Virus record (IMG/VR): IMGVR_UViG_3300044638_006409
Location: 1 to 64,000 of that record
Reading direction: 5' to 3' (one strand)
Length of the DNA: 64,000 nucleotides
From: a virus
In this document: positions 352 through 43,160 of the stretch, in pieces
Position numbering within the stretch: position 1 is the stretch's first letter
Layout of the letters: each line of letters opens with the position of its first letter
Position numbers and translations under genes: made by a program
The notes under the pieces: generated by a model
The model's input: the letters and a program-made list of their open reading frames with translations, nothing else
What the model was told of the DNA's origin: nothing
Database searches by the model: none

Positions 352-3069
352 ATGATTACACCTGAAGAAATCGAAAGTTTCTTAAACGGAAACGACCCCG
401 AAGAACACATCGTTGCCATAGAATATGATTGGGCAACAGAAAACATCTTTAAGATTAAAGAAATCCCCGGTAAAGGAAAAGAAATTAGAAAGGATACATT
501 CACCCCATTTGCTTGGGTTGGTGACCTCCACGGACTTAACTTTTACAAATCATCCAAAGGACTTCAAAAAGAAGCAATGACCAAACACGGAATCCTAATT
601 GAGAAATTGGATACTGGTGGAAATGAACGATTAGAGAAGGGTCTAAAGTTCTTGGTTAAATCCCTTAAAGGATATAGAAGTTTAATGCAATTCTTCAAAG
701 AAGGAGGAATTGACCCATATGGTGATAATACCAAAGAATACTTCCTAATCCCATCTCCAGTAGAACAATATCTTATCCAAAAGGAAAAAAGATTGTTTAA
801 AGGTTATGAAGAATATAATGACATTACAAGATTAGGATTCGACTTAGAGACCACATCTTTAGAACCTAAAGATGGTAGAATCTTTATGATTGGAATTAAA
901 ACGAATAAAGGATTACAAAAAGTAATCGAATGTGCAAATGAAGACCAAGAACGAGCAGGTATTGTTGAGTTTTTTAGAATCATAGATGAGGTTAAACCAT
1001 CAATCATCGGGGGATATAACTCATTCAACTTCGACTGGTATTGGATTATGGAAAGATGTAAAGCTCTACACTTAGATATCAAAAAGATTTGTAAGACATT
1101 ACATCCTGAATATAATATGAAACAAACCAAGGGTATGTTAAAACTTGCCAACGAAGTGGAGGAATATACTCAGATTGGAATGTGGGGATATAATGTTATT
1201 GACATTCTACACTCAGTTAGAAGAGCTCAGGCAATCAACTCGAACATCAAATCAGCGGGTCTTAAATATATTACCCAATACATCAATGCTGAAGCTGAAG
1301 ACCGAGTTTATATTGGACATACTGATATTGGTTCAATGTACGCCAAGAAAGAAGAGTATTGGTTAAATGTTAAGAATGGTAAATACAAAAAGGCCGATAA
1401 ACCTGAATATGATAACTTGGACAAAAAGTTTCCTGATATCTATATCAAAACAACTGGTGACAACCTTGTTGAACGATATCTTGATGATGACTTGGAGGAA
1501 ACCTTGAAAGTGGATGAAGAGTTCAATCAGGGTACATTTATGTTGGCATCAATGATTCCAACAACTTATGAAAGAGTTTCCACTATGGGAACTGCAACCC
1601 TTTGGAAAATGTTGATGATGGCTTGGTCTTATAAGTATAAATTGGCCATTCCCCAAAAAGAACAAAAGAAAGATTTCGTTGGTGGTTTATCAAGATTATT
1701 AAGGGTGGGTTATTCCAAGGATGTATTAAAACTTGACTACTCGTCACTATATCCATCCATTCAGTTAGTACACGATGTTTTTCCTGATTGTGATATTATG
1801 GGGGCAATGAAAGGTATGTTATCTTATTTTAGAAACTCGCGTATTAAATACAAGAACTTAGCTGCTGAATGGTATGACAAAGATAAAAAGAAATCCTTGT
1901 CTTATGATAGAAAACAATTACCTATTAAGATATTCATTAACTCGATGTTCGGTGCGTTATCAGCACCACAAGTGTTTGCGTGGGGTGATATGTATATGGG
2001 TGAACAGATTACTTGTACAGGAAGACAATATCTACGTCAGATGTTAAAGTTCTTTATGAAGAGGGGTTACACCGCGTTAGTATGTGACACGGATGGTATG
2101 AACTTCTCATTACCTGAAGGTGGTGTTGATGATAGAGTTTATATTGGTAAGGGTCTTAATTGGAAAGTTAAGAAGGGAAAAGAATACAAAGGTTATGATG
2201 CTGATGTTGCTGAGTTCAACGATACCTTTATGAAGGGTGAAATGGCATTAGATTGTGATGGAACTTGGAAATCTTGTATTAATCTTGCTCGTAAGAATTA
2301 TGCAACGATGGAACATAATGGTAAAATCAAATTGACAGGTAACTCAATCAAATCCAAAAAACTTCCATTATACATTGAGGAATATTTGGATAAAGCAATT
2401 AGATTATTATTGGAAGGTGAGGGACAGAAGTTTGTTGAATGGTATTATGAATACTTAACTAAAATCTATAACAAAGAAATCCCCCTTCTTAAAATTGCAC
2501 AAAGAGCAAAGGTTAAATTAAGTATTAAGGATTATATTGAGAGGTCAAAACAAACAACTAAATCAGGTGGAGCAATGTCAAGAATGGCTCATATGGAATT
2601 GGCAATGAAACACAATTTAAAAGTGAATCTTGGTGAGGTGATTTATTATGTTAATAATGGTGTTAAAGCAAGTCACGGAGATGTTCAAAAGAAGAAAGAT
2701 GAAGTGGTATTAAATTGTTATATGTTAAATCCAAATGATATTGAGAATAATCCAGATATGTTGGGTGATTATAATGTTGCAAGAGCAATAACAACTTTCA
2801 ACAATCGTATTGAACCATTATTGGTTGTATTCAAACAAGAAGTTAGAGATACTTTGATTATTGATAACCCTGAGAAAAGACAATTCTATACACAACAACA
2901 ATGTGAGTTGATTAATGGAGTTCCATTTGAGGAAAAAGACCAAGATAGAATCAAAGAGGATTTGTTAGATTTAGAACCAAAAGAAATTGAGTACTGGAAC
3001 AAGAGAGGAATTGACCCCAACTATATTTACGATTTGGCTGAAGAAGGATGGGAACAATATATTGACTAA
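352..3069 (+). CDS. Family B DNA polymerase with 3'-5' exonuclease domain
   Basis: ExoI FDLETT, ExoII YNSFNFDW, region II LDYSSLYPS, region III KIFINSMFG, region I variant CDTDG. Confidence 0.95.
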   Translation: MITPEEIESFLNGNDPEEHIVAIEYDWATENIFKIKEIPGKGKEIRKDTFTPFAWVGDLHGLNFYKSSKGLQKEAMTKHGILIEKLDTGGNERLEKGLKFLVKSLKGYRSLMQFFKEGGIDPYGDNTKEYFLIPSPVEQYLIQKEKRLFKGYEEYNDITRLGFDLETTSLEPKDGRIFMIGIKTNKGLQKVIECANEDQERAGIVEFFRIIDEVKPSIIGGYNSFNFDWYWIMERCKALHLDIKKICKTLHPEYNMKQTKGMLKLANEVEEYTQIGMWGYNVIDILHSVRRAQAINSNIKSAGLKYITQYINAEAEDRVYIGHTDIGSMYAKKEEYWLNVKNGKYKKADKPEYDNLDKKFPDIYIKTTGDNLVERYLDDDLEETLKVDEEFNQGTFMLASMIPTTYERVSTMGTATLWKMLMMAWSYKYKLAIPQKEQKKDFVGGLSRLLRVGYSKDVLKLDYSSLYPSIQLVHDVFPDCDIMGAMKGMLSYFRNSRIKYKNLAAEWYDKDKKKSLSYDRKQLPIKIFINSMFGALSAPQVFAWGDMYMGEQITCTGRQYLRQMLKFFMKRGYTALVCDTDGMNFSLPEGGVDDRVYIGKGLNWKVKKGKEYKGYDADVAEFNDTFMKGEMALDCDGTWKSCINLARKNYATMEHNGKIKLTGNSIKSKKLPLYIEEYLDKAIRLLLEGEGQKFVEWYYEYLTKIYNKEIPLLKIAQRAKVKLSIKDYIERSKQTTKSGGAMSRMAHMELAMKHNLKVNLGEVIYYVNNGVKASHGDVQKKKDEVVLNCYMLNPNDIENNPDMLGDYNVARAITTFNNRIEPLLVVFKQEVRDTLIIDNPEKRQFYTQQQCELINGVPFEEKDQDRIKEDLLDLEPKEIEYWNKRGIDPNYIYDLAEEGWEQYID

Positions 3070-33774: not shown

Positions 33775-34626
33775 ATGGCGACAAACCCATTAGATGCTAT
33801 TTTAGCTCAGTACGAACAATCACAAAAATCAGGTAGCAATACCAACAAAATGTCTCAAGATGAGAGAATGAAGAAATACTTCGCAGCTCTTCTTAAGGAC
33901 AATGAAAAACAAGGACAAAAAAGATTAAGAATCCTTCCAACTACAGATGGAAGCTCACCTTTCAAAGAGGTGTGGTTTCACGAAATCCAAGTAGATGGTA
34001 AATGGCAAAAGTTCTATGACCCAGGTAAAAATGATAATGAGCGTTCTCCACTTACAGAAGTATATGAAGAACTTATGTCAACTGGTAGAGATGCCGACAA
34101 AGAACTTGCAAAACAATACAAACCTCGTAAATTTTACATTGTTAAACTTATCGACAGAGATAATGAAAACGATGGAGTTAAGTTTTGGAGATTCAAACAC
34201 AACTACAAAAACGAAGGTATCTTAGATAAACTTATTCCTATCTTTAGAGCAAAAGGTGATGTAACCGATTCTCAAAAAGGTAGAGATATTATCTTAGAGA
34301 TGACCAAAGCAAAAACCCCAAAGGGTGCGACATATACAGTTATTCAAACTATTATGTATGATGACCCAGCTCCACTCCACGAAAACAAAGAAACGGCTGA
34401 AGGTTGGTTAAATGATGAACTATCTTGGGCTGATGTTTACTCTAAAAAACCAGTAGAATACTTGGAAGCTATTGCCAAAGGTGAAACACCAAGATGGGAT
34501 AGTGAAAAGGGTGGTTATGTTTATAGTAACTCAGATTCAGGTGAAGTTGTATTAGGTGGTAAATCCACACCAACTTATTTGGACGATTCTGATGATTTCG
34601 AACCAAGTGGTGACCTTCCGTTCTAA
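33775..34626 (+). CDS. Single-stranded DNA-binding protein (T4 gp32-like)
   Basis: RLRILP...PFKEVWFH, GRDIIL, acidic tail ending GDLPF; first gene of the replication cluster. Confidence 0.75.
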   Translation: MATNPLDAILAQYEQSQKSGSNTNKMSQDERMKKYFAALLKDNEKQGQKRLRILPTTDGSSPFKEVWFHEIQVDGKWQKFYDPGKNDNERSPLTEVYEELMSTGRDADKELAKQYKPRKFYIVKLIDRDNENDGVKFWRFKHNYKNEGILDKLIPIFRAKGDVTDSQKGRDIILEMTKAKTPKGATYTVIQTIMYDDPAPLHENKETAEGWLNDELSWADVYSKKPVEYLEAIAKGETPRWDSEKGGYVYSNSDSGEVVLGGKSTPTYLDDSDDFEPSGDLPF

Positions 34627-34684: not shown

Positions 34685-34912
34685 ATGAAAATTCAAAAAA
34701 AGATGATTGATGCTCTCACTTATAAATATGAAAGTGAGATATCTGAGGCTGAGGCTACTCTCTGGATTTATTTTAATAATCCTGTTGCTATTGGTGAACA
34801 TCCACAACACTTGGAAGAAATGGACAAGTATGTTGAGAAAATGGCTAATGCTAAAGACAAACTGGAAACATTAAAAGAATTCGTAAAATACAATTTAAAC
34901 AATGGCAATTAA
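34685..34912 (+). CDS. Small phage hypothetical protein
   Basis: 75 aa helical hairpin with NPVAIGEHP, a motif I recall from small myovirus proteins. Confidence 0.75.
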   Translation: MKIQKKMIDALTYKYESEISEAEATLWIYFNNPVAIGEHPQHLEEMDKYVEKMANAKDKLETLKEFVKYNLNNGN

Positions 34913-35906
34913 GAAAACGGATTTCAGTAGTATTAAAAAGAAGTTCTCTACCTCAGCAAAGTACAAACAACAAAGATACTTTGACTTGGGTACTGAGTTC
35001 TTGGATGCTGTTGGATTACCAGGTCCTGCTGTAGGTCACCTAAATATGTTTTTAGGTCACTCTGATACTGGTAAAACAACTGCTTTAGTAAAAACTGCAG
35101 TAGATGCTCAGAGAAAGGGTATTCTACCTGTGTTTATTATTACAGAACAAAAATGGAGTTTTGAACACGCTAAATTGATGGGACTACAATGTGAAGAAGT
35201 TGTGGACGAAGAAACTGGTGAAGTTGACTGGGATGGTTTTTATATCTTCAACAATAACTTCGAATATATTGAACAAATCACAGATTATATCAACGACTTA
35301 CTTGATGCACAAGAAAAAGGTGACCTTGAATATAGTTTATGTTTTATGTGGGACTCAGTTGGGTCAATTCCTTGTAAAATGACTTTTGAAGGTAAAGGTG
35401 GAAAACAACATAACGCATCAGTTCTTGCTGATAAAATTGGTATGGGTATTAATCAAAGAATCTCAGGTTCTAGAAAAGCAGATTCAAAGTTTGAAAATAC
35501 TTTGATTATCGTGAACCAACCATGGGTTGAATTACCTGACAATCCTTTTGGACAACCAAAAATTAAAGCTAAAGGTGGTGAAGCAATATGGTTGAACTCT
35601 TCTTTGGTATTTTTGTTTGGTAATCAAAAAGGAGCTGGTACAACTAAGATTACGGCAACTAAAGATAAAAGAAGTGTTAAGTTTGCATCAAGAACTAAAG
35701 TATCTGTATTGAAGAACCATATTAATGGTTTGGGATATGATGATGGTAAGATAATTGTAACTCCCCACGGATTCTTATCAGGTAAAGATACAACTGAAGA
35801 AAAAGCTTCTATTGAAAAATATAAGAAAGAATACGCAGATTATTGGAAAGATTTATTAGGTTTGGAGGGAGATTTTGATTTGAAAGAAGAAAGAGAACAT
35901 GAATAA
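34902..35906 (+). CDS. RecA/UvsX-like recombinase
   Basis: Walker A GHSDTGKTT, catalytic Glu in ITEQK, Walker B FMWDSVG, IIVNQ, KGG. Confidence 0.88.
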   Translation: MAIKKTDFSSIKKKFSTSAKYKQQRYFDLGTEFLDAVGLPGPAVGHLNMFLGHSDTGKTTALVKTAVDAQRKGILPVFIITEQKWSFEHAKLMGLQCEEVVDEETGEVDWDGFYIFNNNFEYIEQITDYINDLLDAQEKGDLEYSLCFMWDSVGSIPCKMTFEGKGGKQHNASVLADKIGMGINQRISGSRKADSKFENTLIIVNQPWVELPDNPFGQPKIKAKGGEAIWLNSSLVFLFGNQKGAGTTKITATKDKRSVKFASRTKVSVLKNHINGLGYDDGKIIVTPHGFLSGKDTTEEKASIEKYKKEYADYWKDLLGLEGDFDLKEEREHE

Positions 35907-36906
35907 ACTAAAAGTAATATCACTATTTTCGGGTTATGGTACACAAGAGTTGGCACTGAAATACATCGGTGCTAACTATGAAGATGTTGCAAATTGTGAC
36001 ATCCTTAAAGTTGCGAACATAGCTTATGATTCATTACACGAGACAACATTGGGTAACTTGGGGGACATATCAAAGGTAAACGAAGATAGTTTCCCCCAAT
36101 GTGACCTGATGACCTATTCTTTCCCTTGTCAAGATATATCAATATCAGGGGTACAAAAGGGTATTCAAAAAGGTACAAGAAGTGGTTTGTTATATGAAGT
36201 TGAAAGGATTTTGACAAAGAACCAACCGAAGTATCTTTTGATGGAGAATGTTAAAAACTTGGTATCACATAATCACATTGAGAACTTCAAAGCTCATATT
36301 TCATTCTTAAATGAATTGGGTTATGGTTGTTCTTGGAAGGTATTGAATGGCGCCGACTTTGGTTGTCCACAGAATAGAGAGAGGGTGTTTATGATGTCCG
36401 TATTTGGTTTGACAAATAATGAAGTTGAAACAATTATGAGTGGTGTTGAGAAACATAAGAAAGATAGAGTTCCTATGAGACCATTCATCGAAAATGAGAT
36501 TACAGAGGACTTATTTATCACTTGTGACATTACACCTAACCATCCCAAAAAAGATAGTGTGTGCAAACTTGTGGCAAGGAGAAACGATGTTAACTACGAC
36601 CAAGCAAGACGAGTTTATTCGATTGATGGTTGTTCCCCTTGTTTAACAACAACTGGTTCACCACAGATTATGGTTGATGGAAGAATAAGAACTATCACAG
36701 GAAGAGAGGCTTACAGATTTATGGGTGTTAGAGAAGAAGATATTGATAAATTATTATCAACAAGTTTAACAACTAAGAACCACGTAGCTTTAGCTGGTAA
36801 TTCCATTTGTGTACCAGTAATGGAAGCTATCTTTACAGAGTTTTTGGGTGAGTATATCTCACAAACAGAAGTAAAAAAATCGTTCACACAATTAAGTTTA
36901 TTTTAA
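35899..36906 (+). CDS. DNA (cytosine-5)-methyltransferase, M.SssI-like
   Basis: Motif I SLFSGYG, IV TYSFPCQDIS, VI MENV, VIII PQNRER, X AGNS. Confidence 0.95.
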   Translation: MNKLKVISLFSGYGTQELALKYIGANYEDVANCDILKVANIAYDSLHETTLGNLGDISKVNEDSFPQCDLMTYSFPCQDISISGVQKGIQKGTRSGLLYEVERILTKNQPKYLLMENVKNLVSHNHIENFKAHISFLNELGYGCSWKVLNGADFGCPQNRERVFMMSVFGLTNNEVETIMSGVEKHKKDRVPMRPFIENEITEDLFITCDITPNHPKKDSVCKLVARRNDVNYDQARRVYSIDGCSPCLTTTGSPQIMVDGRIRTITGREAYRFMGVREEDIDKLLSTSLTTKNHVALAGNSICVPVMEAIFTEFLGEYISQTEVKKSFTQLSLF

Positions 36907-37914
36907 ATGACAAGAACATTATTGGTCGATGGAAACAACCTCATGAAGATAGGTTTCCATGGTGTGAAAGATTATTATCATAATGGTAATCATATTGGGG
37001 GTATATGGCATTTCCTAAACACTATTAGAAGATTCATTGAAGAATATAACTTTGACAAGGCGGTAGTGTTTTGGGATGGCGAAGGAAATTCAAGTAAGAG
37101 AAAAATCATTTACCCCCAATATAAAGAAAACAGAATCCAAGAATCTAACGAGTTTAAGGTTCAATCATTTACCTATCAAAAAGAGAGGGTAAAACAATAC
37201 TTGGAGGAGATGTTTATTCGTCAAGTGAACATAGAAAATAACGAAGCTGATGACTTAATTGCTTATTATTGTCAAATAGCGACTGACGAAAAGATTACCA
37301 TTTTTTCATCGGATAAAGATTTAACCCAACTTATATCACAGAATGTTTCCATTTATTCACCATCAGCCAAGCAATTGTATAGTTTTGGTGATAAAATTAA
37401 ACTTAAAGAACATGAGATTCCTCACAACAATATTTTAACATATAAAATATTAGCTGGAGATAAATCTGACAATATTGATGGAATATATTATTTGGGGGAT
37501 AAAACTTTATTTAAATTATTTCCCGAACTACTTGAACAAGATGTAACAATTAACGATATTTTATCCAAGGCTGAAAATCTCCTCAAAGAAGATAAAGAGA
37601 ATAACACACTCAAAAATCTTTTAACAGGTAAGACAAAGACAGGAATTTATGGGGAAGAATTTTTTCAAATCAACCAAAAGATTGTAGATTTGTCAGACCC
37701 ATTGATAGATGATGAGGGGAGAGAGGTGGTTGAATTATATTATAAGGAAACACTTGACCCCGATGGAAGAGGACATCGAAATCTAATTAAAATGATGATG
37801 GAAGATGGATTCTTCAAGTTCTTACCAAAAGGAGATGATGCTTGGGTGAACTTCTTAAAACCCTTTTTAAAACTAACAAGAAAAGAAAAACACAATTTTA
37901 AAACAAAAAAGTAA
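36907..37914 (+). CDS. 5'-3' exonuclease/flap endonuclease (PolI N-terminal, T4 RNase H-like)
   Basis: LLVDGNN, YKENR, EADDLIA, SSDKDLTQL, GDKSDNIDGI. Confidence 0.93.
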   Translation: MTRTLLVDGNNLMKIGFHGVKDYYHNGNHIGGIWHFLNTIRRFIEEYNFDKAVVFWDGEGNSSKRKIIYPQYKENRIQESNEFKVQSFTYQKERVKQYLEEMFIRQVNIENNEADDLIAYYCQIATDEKITIFSSDKDLTQLISQNVSIYSPSAKQLYSFGDKIKLKEHEIPHNNILTYKILAGDKSDNIDGIYYLGDKTLFKLFPELLEQDVTINDILSKAENLLKEDKENNTLKNLLTGKTKTGIYGEEFFQINQKIVDLSDPLIDDEGREVVELYYKETLDPDGRGHRNLIKMMMEDGFFKFLPKGDDAWVNFLKPFLKLTRKEKHNFKTKK

Positions 37915-38399: not shown

Positions 38400-39779
38400 A
38401 TGTCATCTAACAAAAATTTTGATTATTTAGGGAGCTCATTTCAGATACAACTACTTAATCAAATTGTGGTAGATAGTACCTTTTCAAGGTCAATAATTGA
38501 TGTAATAGAACCTAATTATTTCGAAAACAAATACTTCAAACTCATCATACAGATGATTAAAGAGTATAATCAAAAGTGGGACTCAGTGCCCACTTTTGAC
38601 ACATTGGAACAAATCACAAAATCTGAGTTTCAACAAGAACAAATTGCTAAAGTAGTAATTGACACACTTAAGAAAATTAAGGATGCACCTATCTCTGGTG
38701 GGGATTTCGTTCAAGAGAAAGCGTTAAAGTTCTGTAAACAACAAGAGTTACAAAAAGCTATCACTAAAGCACAAAAAGTAATTGATGGGGGTGAGTTCGA
38801 AAACTACGATACCCTTGAGGAAATGATTAGAGATGCCCTACAAGTGGGTATCAATGAAAACGGAATGCTGAGTGTATTCTCAAACTTGGATGATGTACTA
38901 AACGAAGATTTTAGACACCCAATTCCTATGGGTATTGGTGGTATCGATAGATTATTAAAAGGTGGTTTAGCTAAGGGTGAGATTGGTGTTGTTTTAGCAC
39001 CAACAGGTGTGGGTAAATCAACATTCTTGACCAAGATTGCAAATCACGGATTTAACTTGGGTTATAATATTCTCCAAATATTTTTTGAAGATAATCCCAA
39101 GGTTATTCAAAGAAAACATTTTACATTATGGACTAAAATCCATCCAGATGATATGTCTAATAAGAAGGAAGAAGTAATGACAAGAGTTAAGGAGATTGAA
39201 CAAAAAATGGAAAATCAACTTATCTTGGAAAAACTTCCCTCTGATACAATGACAATGACACAAATCAAAAATCTTGTAAGAAAAAAGATTGCTGATGGAT
39301 GTAAAATTGATATGATTTTATTAGATTACATCGATTGTGTTGTACCTGAGAAAAACTTGGGTGATGAATGGAAATCTGAGGGTTCAGTTATGAGAGCATT
39401 TGAAGCAATGTGTCACGAATTGAACTTGGTAGGATGGACAGCAACACAAGGTAATAGAAGTTCTATTTCTGCTGAGGTTGTAACAACAGACCAAATGGGT
39501 GGTTCTATTAAGAAAGCTCAGGTGGGTCATGTGATTATATCAGTGGCAAAAACATTACAACAAAAAGAGATGAAATTAGCAACAATTGCGATTACAAAAT
39601 CAAGGATTGGTGATGATGGTATTATCTTCGAAAATTGTAAGTTTGATAATGGAATGTTGGATATCGATACAGAATCTTCGGTAACATTCTTGGGACACGA
39701 AGAACAAAAAGAAGAAAACAATAGACAAAGAATTAAAGATTTATTAGAAAAAAGAAAACAAAGAGAAAACACAAATTAA
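38400..39779 (+). CDS. Replicative SF4 helicase (DnaB/T4 gp41-like)
   Basis: Walker [28 protein letters not shown]. Confidence 0.93.
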
Positions 39780-39781
39780 TT

Positions 39782-40732
39782 ATGACAGAAAAAATATTAA
39801 CAGAAAATCCCAATCGTTTTGTGATTTTCCCAATCCAATACCACGACATTTGGGAATACTACAAACAACATCAGGCTGCGTTTTGGACAGCTGAAGAGGT
39901 GGATTTGAGTGGTGACATCAGAGATTGGCAAAACTTATCAGAGAACGAACAATACTTCGTTAAAAATGTATTATCATTCTTTGCTGCATCTGATGGTATT
40001 GTTAATGAGAACTTAGCTGAAAACTTTTACAGAGAAGTACAATACCCCGAAGCGAAATTTTTCTACGGATTTCAATTGATGATGGAAAATATCCATTCAT
40101 TAATGTATTCTTTGTTAATTGATACTTATATATCCAACCCTGATGAAAAGGATGAATGTTTTAATGCAATCGATAGATTACCCGCAGTTCAAAAGAAAGC
40201 TAAGTGGGCATTAGATTGGATTGAAAAAGCGTCATTCCAAGAAAGATTGGTTGCATTTGCTGCAGTAGAAGGTATATTCTTTTCAGGTTCATTCTGTTCT
40301 ATTTTCTGGTTGAAGTCAAGAGGAATTATGCAAGGACTTTGTAATGCAAACTCCTTGATTTTTAAAGATGAAAACCTACATTGTGATTTCGCAATTCACT
40401 TGTTGAATAATCATGTTGAGAATAAACCAAGTGAAAAAAGAATAAAAGAAATATTACTTTCTGCTTTGGAAATTGAAAAAGAATTTATCACTGAATCACT
40501 ACCTATATCATTAATCGGTATGAACTCTAACCTTATGAAACAATATTTGGAGTTTGTTGTTGATGGTTTATTGGTTAAGTTGGGATGTAGTAAACAATTC
40601 AATGTAGAACAACCATTCAAGTTTATGGAACAAATTGCAGTAGAAACAAAAGGTAATTTCTTCGAATCAAGAACGGTTGAGTATCAAAAAGCAAAACTTA
40701 ACGAAACAATTTCATTCACAGACGATTTCTAA
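39782..40732 (+). CDS. nrdB: Ribonucleotide reductase class Ia beta subunit
   Basis: [29 protein letters not shown] (radical Tyr), [15 protein letters not shown]. Confidence 0.97.
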
Positions 40733-40742
40733 AATTATTATT

Positions 40743-43160
40743 ATGTCATTAAGAATTCAAAAAAGGGATGGGGATGTTGTGTCCTTTAATCCAACAAAAA
40801 TACAAAACAGAATTAAAAAAGCCAGTAAGAACTTAAATGTAAACTCAGACCAGATTTTCATTAAGGTTATTACTTCCGTACCAACAGAGGGTGTAATTTC
40901 AACAAAACAATTAGATAAGTTGATTTACGAGATTGCTGCATCATATACAGGTAGCCACCACGATTATTCGAGGTTGGCTTCTTCTGTTGCAATATCTTCA
41001 TATCACAAAGAAACAAATGAAAGTTTCAGTGAGACGATGAAGTCATTAGCTGATATGGGTATTGTTAATAAAGAATTGATTGATATGATTGATTCCTATG
41101 GGGATTTGAATATCGATGAAGTTATCAATCACGAGAATGATTATAACTTTGATTACTTTGCTTGGCGTTCATTATTTGAAATGTACTTGTTAAAAACACC
41201 AGAAGGTGTAACTGTGGAAAGACCCCAACATATGTATATGAGGGTTGCTTTATGGGTAACAAAATCATTTGATGAAGCTGTAGAATACTACAAGTCATTA
41301 TCAAATCAATTAATTTCTCCAGCAACACCAATTATGATTAATGCTGGTACAAAGATTCCTCAATTAGCATCTTGTGTACTACATTATAACAATGATGACT
41401 CAAGAGGAGGTTTGTTAGCAACAATGAATGATATCTCTACTTATTCTGCTGACGCTGCAGGTATTGGTCTTTGTATGTCAAATATTAGAAGTAAGGAGAG
41501 TAGATTGAGTACATCAGGTGGTTTTGCTGGTGGATTATTAAAATATCTTAAGATTGCAAATGAATCACTAAGATTCTTTAACCAACAAGGTAGAAGACCA
41601 GGTTCTGCCGCAATTTATCTTGAACCTTGGCATAAAGATATCTTTGACTTGTTGGACATTAAAAAGAATACAGGTGCGGAAGAATTAAGAGCAAGAGATT
41701 TGTTCACAGCTCTATGGATTCCTGATAATTTTATGAGAGCCGTAAAAGAGGGTGGTGATTGGTATTTATTCTGCCCTAACGATATTAAAAAAGCTGGTCT
41801 AAAACCATTACAAGAATGTTTTGGTAGTGAGTACGAAAGTGTTTATGAACAAGCGGTAAATTTAGGTTTGGGTAAAAAAGTAAAAGCAACAGATGTTTGG
41901 ACTAAGGTAATTGAATCTCAAATTGAGACTGGTGTACCTTATCTTTGTTCTAAAGATAATGCTAACAACAAAACTAATCATCAGAACATTGGGGTTATCA
42001 AACAATCAAATCTTTGTAACGAGATTTACCAATTTACTGACGAGAAAACTACAGCTATCTGTACTCTATCTTCAATGGTGTTGAAAAACTTTGTAAAAGA
42101 TGGTGAGTTTAATTTTAGACTTCTTTATGAAGAAACAAGAAAGGTTGTTAGAGCCCTTAATAAAGTTGTTGATATTAATAACTATTCAACTTCAAAAGGT
42201 GAAAAGGGTGGTAAAGAACAAAGAGCAATTGCAATTGGAACTCAAGGTTTAGCGGATGTATTCTATCTTATGGATTATGAGTTTACTTCAGACGAAGCAA
42301 AACAACTAAACAAAGATATCTTTGAGACAATTTATTTTGCCGCAATCACCGAAAGTAATAGGTTGGTAATTGATGGTGATTATAAACCATATGATTTCTT
42401 CGATGGTTCACCAATGTCACAAGGACAATTCCAATTTGATATGTGGGGATTAACAGAATCTGATTTATCAGGTAGATGGCCTTGGGAAATATTAAAGTCA
42501 AATGTTAAACAATATGGTATTTGTAATTCATTGTTTACAGCACAAATGCCCGTAGCGAGTTCTGCTAAGATTACTGGTTCATATGAAATGACTGAACCTG
42601 CTCACTCAGCAATCTTCAATAGACGAGTAGTTGGTGGTGAAATTATGATTGTTAACAAGTATCTTATTAATGATTTTGAGAAACTTGGTATTTGGGGTGA
42701 GGATTTGAAAAATGAAATTATATACAATGAAGGTTCGATTCAAAATATTAATTTCAACAACTACTTAGACCCTGAAGACAAAAAGTACAATCAAAAAGTT
42801 AAAAGAATTGAACACTTGATTAAGAAGTACAAAACGATTTGGGAAATATCACAAAGGGAGTTGATTGATATGGCAGCAGATAGAGGACCTTTTATTGACC
42901 AATCACAATCAATGAATATTTATATGGGTAATCCTACTTTATCGAAGATTACTTCATCTCACTTCCACGCTTGGCAAAAAGGTTTAAAAACTCTTTGTTA
43001 TTATGTGAGAACAAAAGCAATCTCAACAGGAGCAAAACACTTAGCTATGGATATATCAAAGATGGATAAACCAAAAGTAACACCAACATTACCACATGTT
43101 GAACCTATAACAAACAAACCAACTGATTCACCATTTGAATGTTTTGGATGTTCATCTTAA
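40743..43160 (+). CDS. nrdA: Ribonucleotide reductase class Ia alpha subunit with ATP cone
   Basis: IQKRDG ATP cone, QLASC, SNLCNEI, TLCYY, C-terminal CFGC. ATG at 40743. Confidence 0.97.
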   Translation: MSLRIQKRDGDVVSFNPTKIQNRIKKASKNLNVNSDQIFIKVITSVPTEGVISTKQLDKLIYEIAASYTGSHHDYSRLASSVAISSYHKETNESFSETMKSLADMGIVNKELIDMIDSYGDLNIDEVINHENDYNFDYFAWRSLFEMYLLKTPEGVTVERPQHMYMRVALWVTKSFDEAVEYYKSLSNQLISPATPIMINAGTKIPQLASCVLHYNNDDSRGGLLATMNDISTYSADAAGIGLCMSNIRSKESRLSTSGGFAGGLLKYLKIANESLRFFNQQGRRPGSAAIYLEPWHKDIFDLLDIKKNTGAEELRARDLFTALWIPDNFMRAVKEGGDWYLFCPNDIKKAGLKPLQECFGSEYESVYEQAVNLGLGKKVKATDVWTKVIESQIETGVPYLCSKDNANNKTNHQNIGVIKQSNLCNEIYQFTDEKTTAICTLSSMVLKNFVKDGEFNFRLLYEETRKVVRALNKVVDINNYSTSKGEKGGKEQRAIAIGTQGLADVFYLMDYEFTSDEAKQLNKDIFETIYFAAITESNRLVIDGDYKPYDFFDGSPMSQGQFQFDMWGLTESDLSGRWPWEILKSNVKQYGICNSLFTAQMPVASSAKITGSYEMTEPAHSAIFNRRVVGGEIMIVNKYLINDFEKLGIWGEDLKNEIIYNEGSIQNINFNNYLDPEDKKYNQKVKRIEHLIKKYKTIWEISQRELIDMAADRGPFIDQSQSMNIYMGNPTLSKITSSHFHAWQKGLKTLCYYVRTKAISTGAKHLAMDISKMDKPKVTPTLPHVEPITNKPTDSPFECFGCSS

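Follow-up and report, generated by a model that had tools for sequence, protein, structure and literature searches.

The stretch of viral DNA analysed here (the window, 64,000 nucleotides) is the first 64 kb of the 120,655-base IMG/VR virus record IMGVR_UViG_3300044638_006409 (G000), which has a G+C content of 31.6% and a CheckV completeness of 41%. On its plus strand, at 35899-36906, lies an open reading frame (ORF) for a C5-cytosine DNA methyltransferase of 335 amino acids (P0001; PF00145), whose last five residues, QLSLF, exactly match the bacterial beta-clamp-binding pentapeptide consensus (QL[S/D]LF type). The motif sits on a tail that is predicted to be disordered, it is preserved in a lineage of close relatives and it recurs at the end of distant C5-methyltransferases. 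We propose, with about even confidence, that P0001 is an orphan methyltransferase tethered to a sliding clamp through this tail, and that it would act in step with replication. G000 was compared with three related records, G001 (194 kb, 66% complete), G002 (100% complete) and G003 (35% complete).

A C5-methyltransferase with a predicted flexible tail

P0001 matches PF00145 with an E-value of 3.7e-57 (194.6 bits, cut-off 22), the match covering residues 4-314 and profile positions 1-321 of 324. The catalytic motifs are intact in the translation and, in the conventional numbering, are LFSGYG (I), FPCQ with Cys77 (IV), MENV (VI), QNRER (VIII) and AGNSI (X); residues P76, C77, E116, N117, V118, Q158, R160, R162, G300 and N301 are invariant in our alignment of the family (A1). 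The AlphaFold2 model, built from a 51-row alignment, has a mean predicted local distance difference test score (pLDDT) of 92.5, stays above 90 in the body and is confident to about residue 320. Judged by its sequence, P0001 is an intact C5-cytosine DNA methyltransferase.

The end of the protein is of a different kind. Residues 326-335 (36874-36903, plus strand) are the only segment with pLDDT below 50, with block means of 54 for residues 321-330 and 39 for residues 331-335, and the alignments to the solved enzymes M.MpeI and M.HhaI stop at query residues 311-321. Because pLDDT falls below 50 only at 326-335, the body is placed as ending near residue 320, with the motif on a floppy tail; in the model this tail is a separate flexible piece that presents QLSLF. 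The pentapeptide itself, residues 331-335 at the extreme C-terminus (36889-36903, plus strand), had been reported in the preliminary description of this DNA and was confirmed in the ORF translation, which reads ...KKSFTQLSLF and is followed by TAA.

Such an end is rare. With the amino-acid composition of the record's ORFs, the probability of QLxLF at the very end of one ORF by chance is 1.25e-5, and therefore 0.0016 cases are expected among the 124 ORFs of G000. P0001 is the only one of the 124 with an end of this type, and among the 211 ORFs of G001 it is again the methyltransferase alone that carries it. Six Pfam-supported DNA methyltransferases are encoded by G000, and the tail is present only on the member within the replication block; the others are a D12-class (Dam-like) enzyme at 102827-103624, a pair of enzymes of the N6/N4 kind and two more ORFs of C5 type.

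Conservation and replacement of the tail among close relatives

Of 8,000 candidates scored in a word-index search, 6,512 proteins reached E <= 1e-10, and tails were read from the best 120 (68-97% identity). Counting the query, 47 of these 121 close family proteins end in QL[S/K/T]L[F/V], two of them with one extra K. In the 16 distinct motif tails, which represent 45 of the 47 bearers, the Q and both L residues are invariant and the preceding linker is variable at most positions; the middle residue is S (8 tails), K (6) or T (2), and the last is F (13) or V (3). Tail codons are identical among the closest relatives, and between relatives the first Leu codon of the motif differs synonymously (CTT vs TTA). 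The junction with the downstream gene for a 5'-3' exonuclease (FEN-like) varies as well (TAAATG, TAATG or AAATGA) while the peptide stays.

When the tails were classed among 80 viral loci, QLxL[FV](K) was found at 30, ..LSN..ND at 22, ..NNxVNP.. at 17, ..EETNC at eight and other tails at two, with one locus lacking a 3' end. In the second class the final ND* is imposed by the overlap with the start of the FEN gene (A ATG AC TAA), and no frameshift relation between tail types was visible in the DNA. These sister-clade tails (loci L050-L066 and L076-L078) share P[VI]LSNP[IL]NE..ND, and their conserved LSN part may be another docking peptide. A quick IQ-TREE maximum-likelihood tree of the core (119 rows, leaving out the fragments P0057 and P0097 as well as P0122, with motif X missed by the regular expression) separates a 58-row clade with ..LSN..ND-type tails from a 61-row clade, of which 46 rows carry QLxLF and the basal rows carry other tails; the motif label needs two to four changes on this tree. 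The pattern indicates that the motif is maintained like a peptide motif within its lineage, down to 77% identity, yet appears to have been replaced more than once and so would not be indispensable.

The methyltransferase ORFs of some relatives are longer (689-706 aa), owing to an intein-like insert directly before the catalytic Cys of PCQ, which starts with C-F-T-K, ends with H-N and contains LAGLIDADG-type blocks. The carriers are L067:2212-4287, L069:2083-4149 and L076:8672-10789 (the same as G002 205008-207092), and the L069 protein ends in QLKLF.

Recurrence of the motif on distant methyltransferases

An exhaustive profile-free search provided 150 listed representatives of other 50%-identity clusters, with 33-70% identity over the matched stretches. 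Strict QLxLF lies within the last 12 residues of ten of the 150 and at none of 65,673 internal positions. The looser pattern Q[LIVMF]x[LIVM][FLWYIVM] lies within the last 12 residues of 18, against 0.48 expected, and stands at the exact end in 16 of the 18. The linkers before these distant motifs are unrelated to one another. QLxLF at the C-terminus of distant C5-methyltransferases thus recurs far above chance.

A cultured example is gp034 of the Bacillus thuringiensis phage vB_BthS_BMBphi (MH458951.1, 17245-18267; L201:3001-4023), a C5-methyltransferase that ends ...EEKQLELF. It has 37% identity to P0001 over the whole length and is encoded between the helicase and family A DNA polymerase genes, with a gap of 110 nt between the end of the motif and the next gene. 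No clamp is annotated among the 79 features of this phage, the 368-aa gp037 has no Pfam family, and no study of the gp034 tail was found in the literature.

Proposed mechanism and the identity of the clamp

Linear motifs of the QLSLF type are inserted by bacterial polymerases, MutS, Hda and comparable proteins into a hydrophobic pocket of the beta sliding clamp (DnaN). We propose that the product of this gene is an active C5-cytosine DNA methyltransferase that stands alone ('orphan') and would be expressed together with the replication genes, and that its catalytic body would be followed, from about residue 320, by a short flexible tail presenting QLSLF. Through the tail the enzyme would dock on clamps that have been loaded on phage DNA during its replication, and these clamps would most probably be those of the host, because no phage clamp is recognisable. 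The enzyme would in this way be concentrated on freshly made duplex, slide along it and methylate its sites before packaging, and methylation at the fork or just behind it would leave the progeny DNA protected from restriction.

In G000-G003 no match to the DnaN, gp45, PCNA or clamp-loader families exceeded its cut-off, each profile being searched in stated records: TIGR00663, PF02767, PF00705, PF02916 and PF13177 in all four, PF00712 in G000 only, and PF02768 and PF09116 in G001-G003. Below cut-off, PF02916 gave one 13-bit match to a 56-aa frame of G001, and PF13177 gave 12-bit matches inside a double-AAA protein of 691/757 aa, which PF00004 also found together with a 345-aa AAA ORF located among small accessory genes of G002. 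PHROGs scans of 20 conserved ORFs likewise found no clamp; 12 of the 20 had no match, and the families recovered were head, portal, terminase, protease, sigma-factor and exonuclease.

A second protein of the same replication block may be pertinent to the question of host partners. The single-stranded DNA-binding protein (SSB) of the gp32 family (33775-34626, plus strand; PF08804, E 6.7e-13) ends in an acidic stretch and DLPF, and among the 80 loci searched all 56 relatives whose 3' end is complete (in L005-L079) have an acidic run with a [DE]LPF end. The tip is similar to that at the C-terminus of bacterial SSB, which in Escherichia coli recruits the chi subunit of the clamp loader among other partners. 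The sequences suggest that a T4-type phage SSB has taken over a docking peptide of the host SSB, and the preservation of the tip in all 56 fits a replisome that plugs into host factors.

A structure prediction with DnaN, which the preliminary description had named as a check, was run for P0001 (alignment A1) with the E. coli clamp (Swiss-Prot DPO3B_ECOLI). The result was rated 'weak support', with a score of 0.49 (runs 0.49, 0.50 and 0.42) against 0.01 for the best of three controls; at least 61% of contacts are common to the runs, and the partner pLDDT is at least 83. Of 80 solved complexes 58 reached the mark, as did two of 110 mismatched pairs, and at <=0.60 it was reached by only seven of the 80 solved complexes and by both mismatches that passed. 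No interface or contacts were reported, and therefore it cannot be stated that the tail lies in the clamp pocket. The pass may also be due to likeness to solved clamp-peptide complexes.

Several observations weigh against a host-clamp tether. The conservation of the terminal motif among homologs that the preliminary description had asked for holds within the bearers, with their invariant Q, L and L, and does not extend to the whole family: 74 of the 121 close relatives carry other tails than QLxL[FV], as does G002, the only relative rated complete. Within the QLxLF clade, moreover, a nested subclade of eight rows (83-90% identity to the query) carries ..NNFVNP or ..EETNC tails, so that the tail can be replaced or is not essential. 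The clade that bears the motif is shallow (at least 77% identity to the query), and part of the conservation is therefore simple descent. Among cultured phages, the motif is absent from four of the five best-hit methyltransferase coding sequences (CDSs) and from eight of the nine methyltransferase-like CDSs read. The motif scan found no clamp motif at the ends of the family B polymerase and the other replication proteins. The two QLSLF-bearing records, G000 and G001, are incomplete and G002 belongs to the non-motif clade, so that a phage clamp may be encoded in the part of the QLSLF-lineage records that is missing, or may have diverged beyond the reach of the profiles. The complex prediction is weak and uses the E. 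coli clamp as a stand-in for that of a host whose only indication, from ribonucleotide reductase (RNR) similarity, is a weak pointer to Bacteroidota. Nothing independent shows a beta clamp acting on the phage DNA.

Alternative explanations

The alternative that survives best, which we still consider unlikely, is that the tail docks on a partner encoded by the phage and not on host DnaN. Candidates would be an unrecognised, divergent sliding clamp, a processivity factor that serves the family B polymerase, or a replisome protein encoded nearby, such as the SSB, RecA-like ATPase, FEN or helicase. The phage does supply a polymerase, helicase, primase-like protein, SSB and FEN itself, many of its ORFs belong to no family, as the PHROGs scans illustrate, and with the motif-bearing records 41% and 66% complete some of its genes are out of view. 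Polymerases and late transcription factors of the T4 type attach to gp45 by hydrophobic tails at their C-termini, and tail swapping between sublineages would fit co-evolution with a phage partner. Yet the profile searches for a clamp or clamp loader were negative in four records, the complete G002 included, and the peptide fits the bacterial beta-clamp consensus exactly, not loosely. The presence of QLxLF ends on unrelated clusters and on the Bacillus phage enzyme is explained more easily by a universal bacterial partner than by phage partners particular to each lineage, and BMBphi also has no annotated clamp of its own, with gp037 being a protein of no Pfam family.

Somewhat less probable again is that the terminal QLSLF has no binding role at all, and is simply the end, peculiar to this lineage, of a rapidly evolving spacer that separates the methyltransferase and FEN genes, kept by recent common descent or by nucleotide-level constraint on the region of FEN translation start. 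The position of the motif lends itself to this explanation, as the last 15 nt immediately precede the FEN ATG, neighbouring genes overlap at their ends and starts in relatives, and the ND* of the sister clade is dictated by the FEN start. The tail is also the most variable region of the protein, several unrelated tails exist, and its codons are identical among the closest relatives. A chance origin is at odds with the 0.0016 cases expected in the record, and the unchanging Q and L residues, a middle position free to vary and a changeable linker together make up the pattern of a peptide motif and not of a nucleotide signal. The synonymous difference in the first Leu codon and the varying FEN junction, with the peptide constant, argue in the same direction, as do the strict motif near the end in ten of 150 representatives of other clusters, with none internally, and the 110 nt that separate the BMBphi motif from the next gene.

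Finally, the tail of an abundant early protein could vie with host polymerases, Hda or MutS for access to DnaN and thereby disturb host replication or repair, the methyltransferase being merely the carrier; this would accord with its place in an early or middle replication block and with the phage Mu transcription factor MuC, which needs the host clamp through a clamp-binding motif and whose over-production is toxic and leads to over-initiation, effects that the authors attribute to clamp depletion (10.1101/2025.01.04.631326), but it is highly improbable, as nothing points to strong expression, the motif turns up again specifically on enzymes that modify DNA, which speaks for bringing an enzyme to DNA more than for competition alone, and relatives without the tail keep the gene in its position.

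Gene neighbourhood

The preliminary description had placed the methyltransferase inside a replication operon, overlapping a recA-like gene, abutting a 5'-3' exonuclease gene and without a restriction endonuclease as neighbour, and these features of the locus were borne out. The methyltransferase ATG lies 8 nt inside the upstream RecA-like ATPase ORF (34902-35906, plus strand), for which the family match is weak (PF00154, E 8.1e-4, 19.4 bits, under the 27-bit cut-off), and its TAA (36904-36906) is followed directly by the ATG of the FEN-like gene (36907-37914, plus strand; PF02739 (5_3_exonuc_N), E 1.9e-30; PF01367, E 1.7e-6). The block further contains the SSB gene described above, a gene for a DnaB-like replicative helicase (38400-39779, plus strand; PF03796, E 2.5e-10) and, after it, two RNR genes (39782-43160, plus strand), which match RNR families. 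No restriction-type nuclease gene is adjacent to the methyltransferase, as Pfam assigns the flanking and next genes to replication and recombination families. The gene order is common to G000, G001 and G002, and in relatives without a QLxLF tail the position of the gene is unchanged. A restriction-modification pair was considered and rejected, given the lack of a nuclease neighbour together with the conserved replication synteny.

Elsewhere in the window, at 352-3069 on the plus strand, the phage encodes a family B DNA polymerase (PF00136, E 1.1e-14; PF03104, E 8.6e-11) that ends ...EEGWEQYID. This protein matches cultured phages (Salinibacter and Nostoc/Anabaena phages) at only 23-28% identity, and blastn of 3.5 kb found no close cultured phage. 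Inverted terminal repeats are present in the complete relative G002. The RNR genes have 97-98% identity between G000 and G001 and no blastp match in the complete G002, and of the nearest cellular loci to the phage RNR large subunit 73 of 80 are Bacteroidota by title, at ~40-45% identity. This similarity is a weak hint that the host phylum is Bacteroidota, and the distribution of the genes hints at a recent gain. A 266-aa protein (82804-83604 of G000; L002:3804-4604) matches the phage RNA polymerase sigma-factor family phrog_351 (E 5.5e-53); its gene adjoins SbcC/Rad50-like and Mre11-like genes, and the protein has 74% identity in G002.

Target site of the enzyme

The preliminary description had noted a close likeness to the CpG-specific enzymes M.SssI and M.MpeI. 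The likeness is real at the sequence level in the catalytic core, and the CpG target of these enzymes cannot be carried over. By sequence the best solved relatives are 4dkj_A (E 6.6e-45) and 8c56_A (E 9.5e-45), with M.HhaI at E 1.3e-29; Foldseek titles 4dkj and 8c57/8c58 as CpG-specific M.MpeI (top match E 7.0e-29, TMq 0.80). Query residues 43-321 align to residues 100-392 of the M.MpeI chain (PDB 4dkj, 8c56-8c59), and the catalytic motifs are very similar (..TYSFPCQD.S..G.QKGI..TRSGLL.E.ERIL..PKYLLMENVKNL.SH). M.MpeI differs in having an N-terminal insertion of its own (about chain residues 33-99), absent from P0001, and in showing no QLxLF in the aligned part, which extends to residue 392 of 403. 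M.HhaI (GCGC) is structurally as close (TMq 0.81 vs 0.80), has the same fold and nearly the same size (327 vs 335 aa), and shares the catalytic loop, which is SISG in P0001 and ..FSISG.. in the HhaI alignment. Its identity to P0001 is 26-28%, and no clamp motif was seen in the alignment, which runs to chain residue 314 of 327. HhaI belongs to a restriction-modification pair, whereas P0001 stands among replication genes without a nuclease partner.

The residues that make CpG-specific contacts in M.MpeI are named in the accessible part of PMC10899764, with whose numbering the residue identities at the chain positions agree. They were mapped on P0001 through a HMMER alignment that is weak in the recognition region, so that the mapping is approximate: Gln141 corresponds to Ser83, Phe302 to Tyr233, Glu305 to Ala236, Gly322 to Gly253, Ala323 to Ser254, Asn324 to Pro255 and Arg326 to Gln256, and Ser325 falls in a gap of the query. 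P0001 thus keeps only the aromatic residue (Phe302/Tyr233) and the glycine (Gly322/Gly253), and Gln141, Glu305 and Ser325 are not kept. The dinucleotide composition of G000 does not single out CpG either, as its observed/expected ratio of 0.49 is accompanied by 0.54 for GpC (TG/CA 1.20), with similar values in G001 and G002. A CpG target is therefore not supported, with most recognition residues not kept, the HhaI fold as close, and CpG and GpC depleted alike. With the target not transferable and binding only predicted, the broad anti-restriction protection expected in the preliminary description can therefore be put only conditionally.

Among other short words, GATC is nearly absent, with 31 sites in G000 (observed/expected 0.08) and none in the 194 kb of G001, yet G000 encodes the D12-class (Dam-like) methyltransferase mentioned above. 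ACGT, CATG and CCGG are likewise avoided in G000 and in its relative G001.

Relation to known systems and significance

Bacterial clients of the beta clamp with motifs of the QL[S/D]LF type include Pol II, Pol IV, PolC, MutS and Hda, and P0001 is like them in carrying the motif at its extreme terminus on a predicted disordered tail. It differs from them in its enzymatic class: in the accessible part of a 2022 review of sliding clamps, the clients named include no DNA methyltransferase from a bacterium or a phage, and the only methyltransferase client is eukaryotic Dnmt1 with PCNA, for which Iida et al. 2002 is cited. In the accessible parts of two further sources, plasmid methyltransferases are linked to Pol I with the clamp as intermediary being speculation only (PMC7736820), and a phage clamp and methyltransferases are mentioned and not connected (PMC4351075). 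Reports of a DNA methyltransferase from bacteria or phages that carries a clamp-binding motif were not found in a literature search confined largely to openly accessible journals and to main texts. The combination of a C5-methyltransferase with a clamp-binding motif is one of known parts.

The proposed logic, in which a C5-methyltransferase on a sliding clamp would lead to newly replicated DNA being methylated, is that of DNMT1 and PCNA. The two differ in the clamp (PCNA vs DnaN), in the position of the motif, which is C-terminal in P0001 and in the N-terminal regulatory region in DNMT1, and in the lack of homology outside the catalytic domain, so that the relation is one of analogy and not of membership. 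The PIP box, QxxLxxFF, is absent from P0001. BMBphi gp034 resembles P0001 in its place inside a replication block, its QLELF end and the lack of an annotated clamp. It differs in the E at the middle of its motif and in its phage, a small siphovirus that infects a Firmicute and has a family A polymerase.

We put forward a wider view only tentatively. Clamp tails on phage C5-methyltransferases may be a widespread and repeatedly evolved device, which in this jumbo phage would form part of a wider strategy of linking a replisome that is for the most part its own to host hubs via mimicked short motifs. The [DE]LPF tip of the SSB could recruit host SSB partners and thereby clamp loading, and the methyltransferase would then ride the host clamp; tail swaps between sublineages would reflect a change of host or partner. 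Such a device would make methylation replication-coupled in prokaryotic viruses, as a functional analogue of the DNMT1-PCNA link.

If the tail does bind a clamp, phage methylation would be targeted in space and time to the fork, in place of a diffuse encounter between enzyme and site. This would explain how orphan phage methyltransferases keep pace with replication and favour phage over host DNA, and it would add DNA-modifying enzymes to the 'tool-belt' of the bacterial clamp as a new class of clients and provide a prokaryotic counterpart of the eukaryotic pairing. In practical terms, such tails could predict which phage methyltransferases act during replication, and could serve to engineer replication-coupled DNA marking. 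As a cultured phage with the same architecture, BMBphi, through gp034, makes the clamp-tail idea directly testable in a laboratory system.

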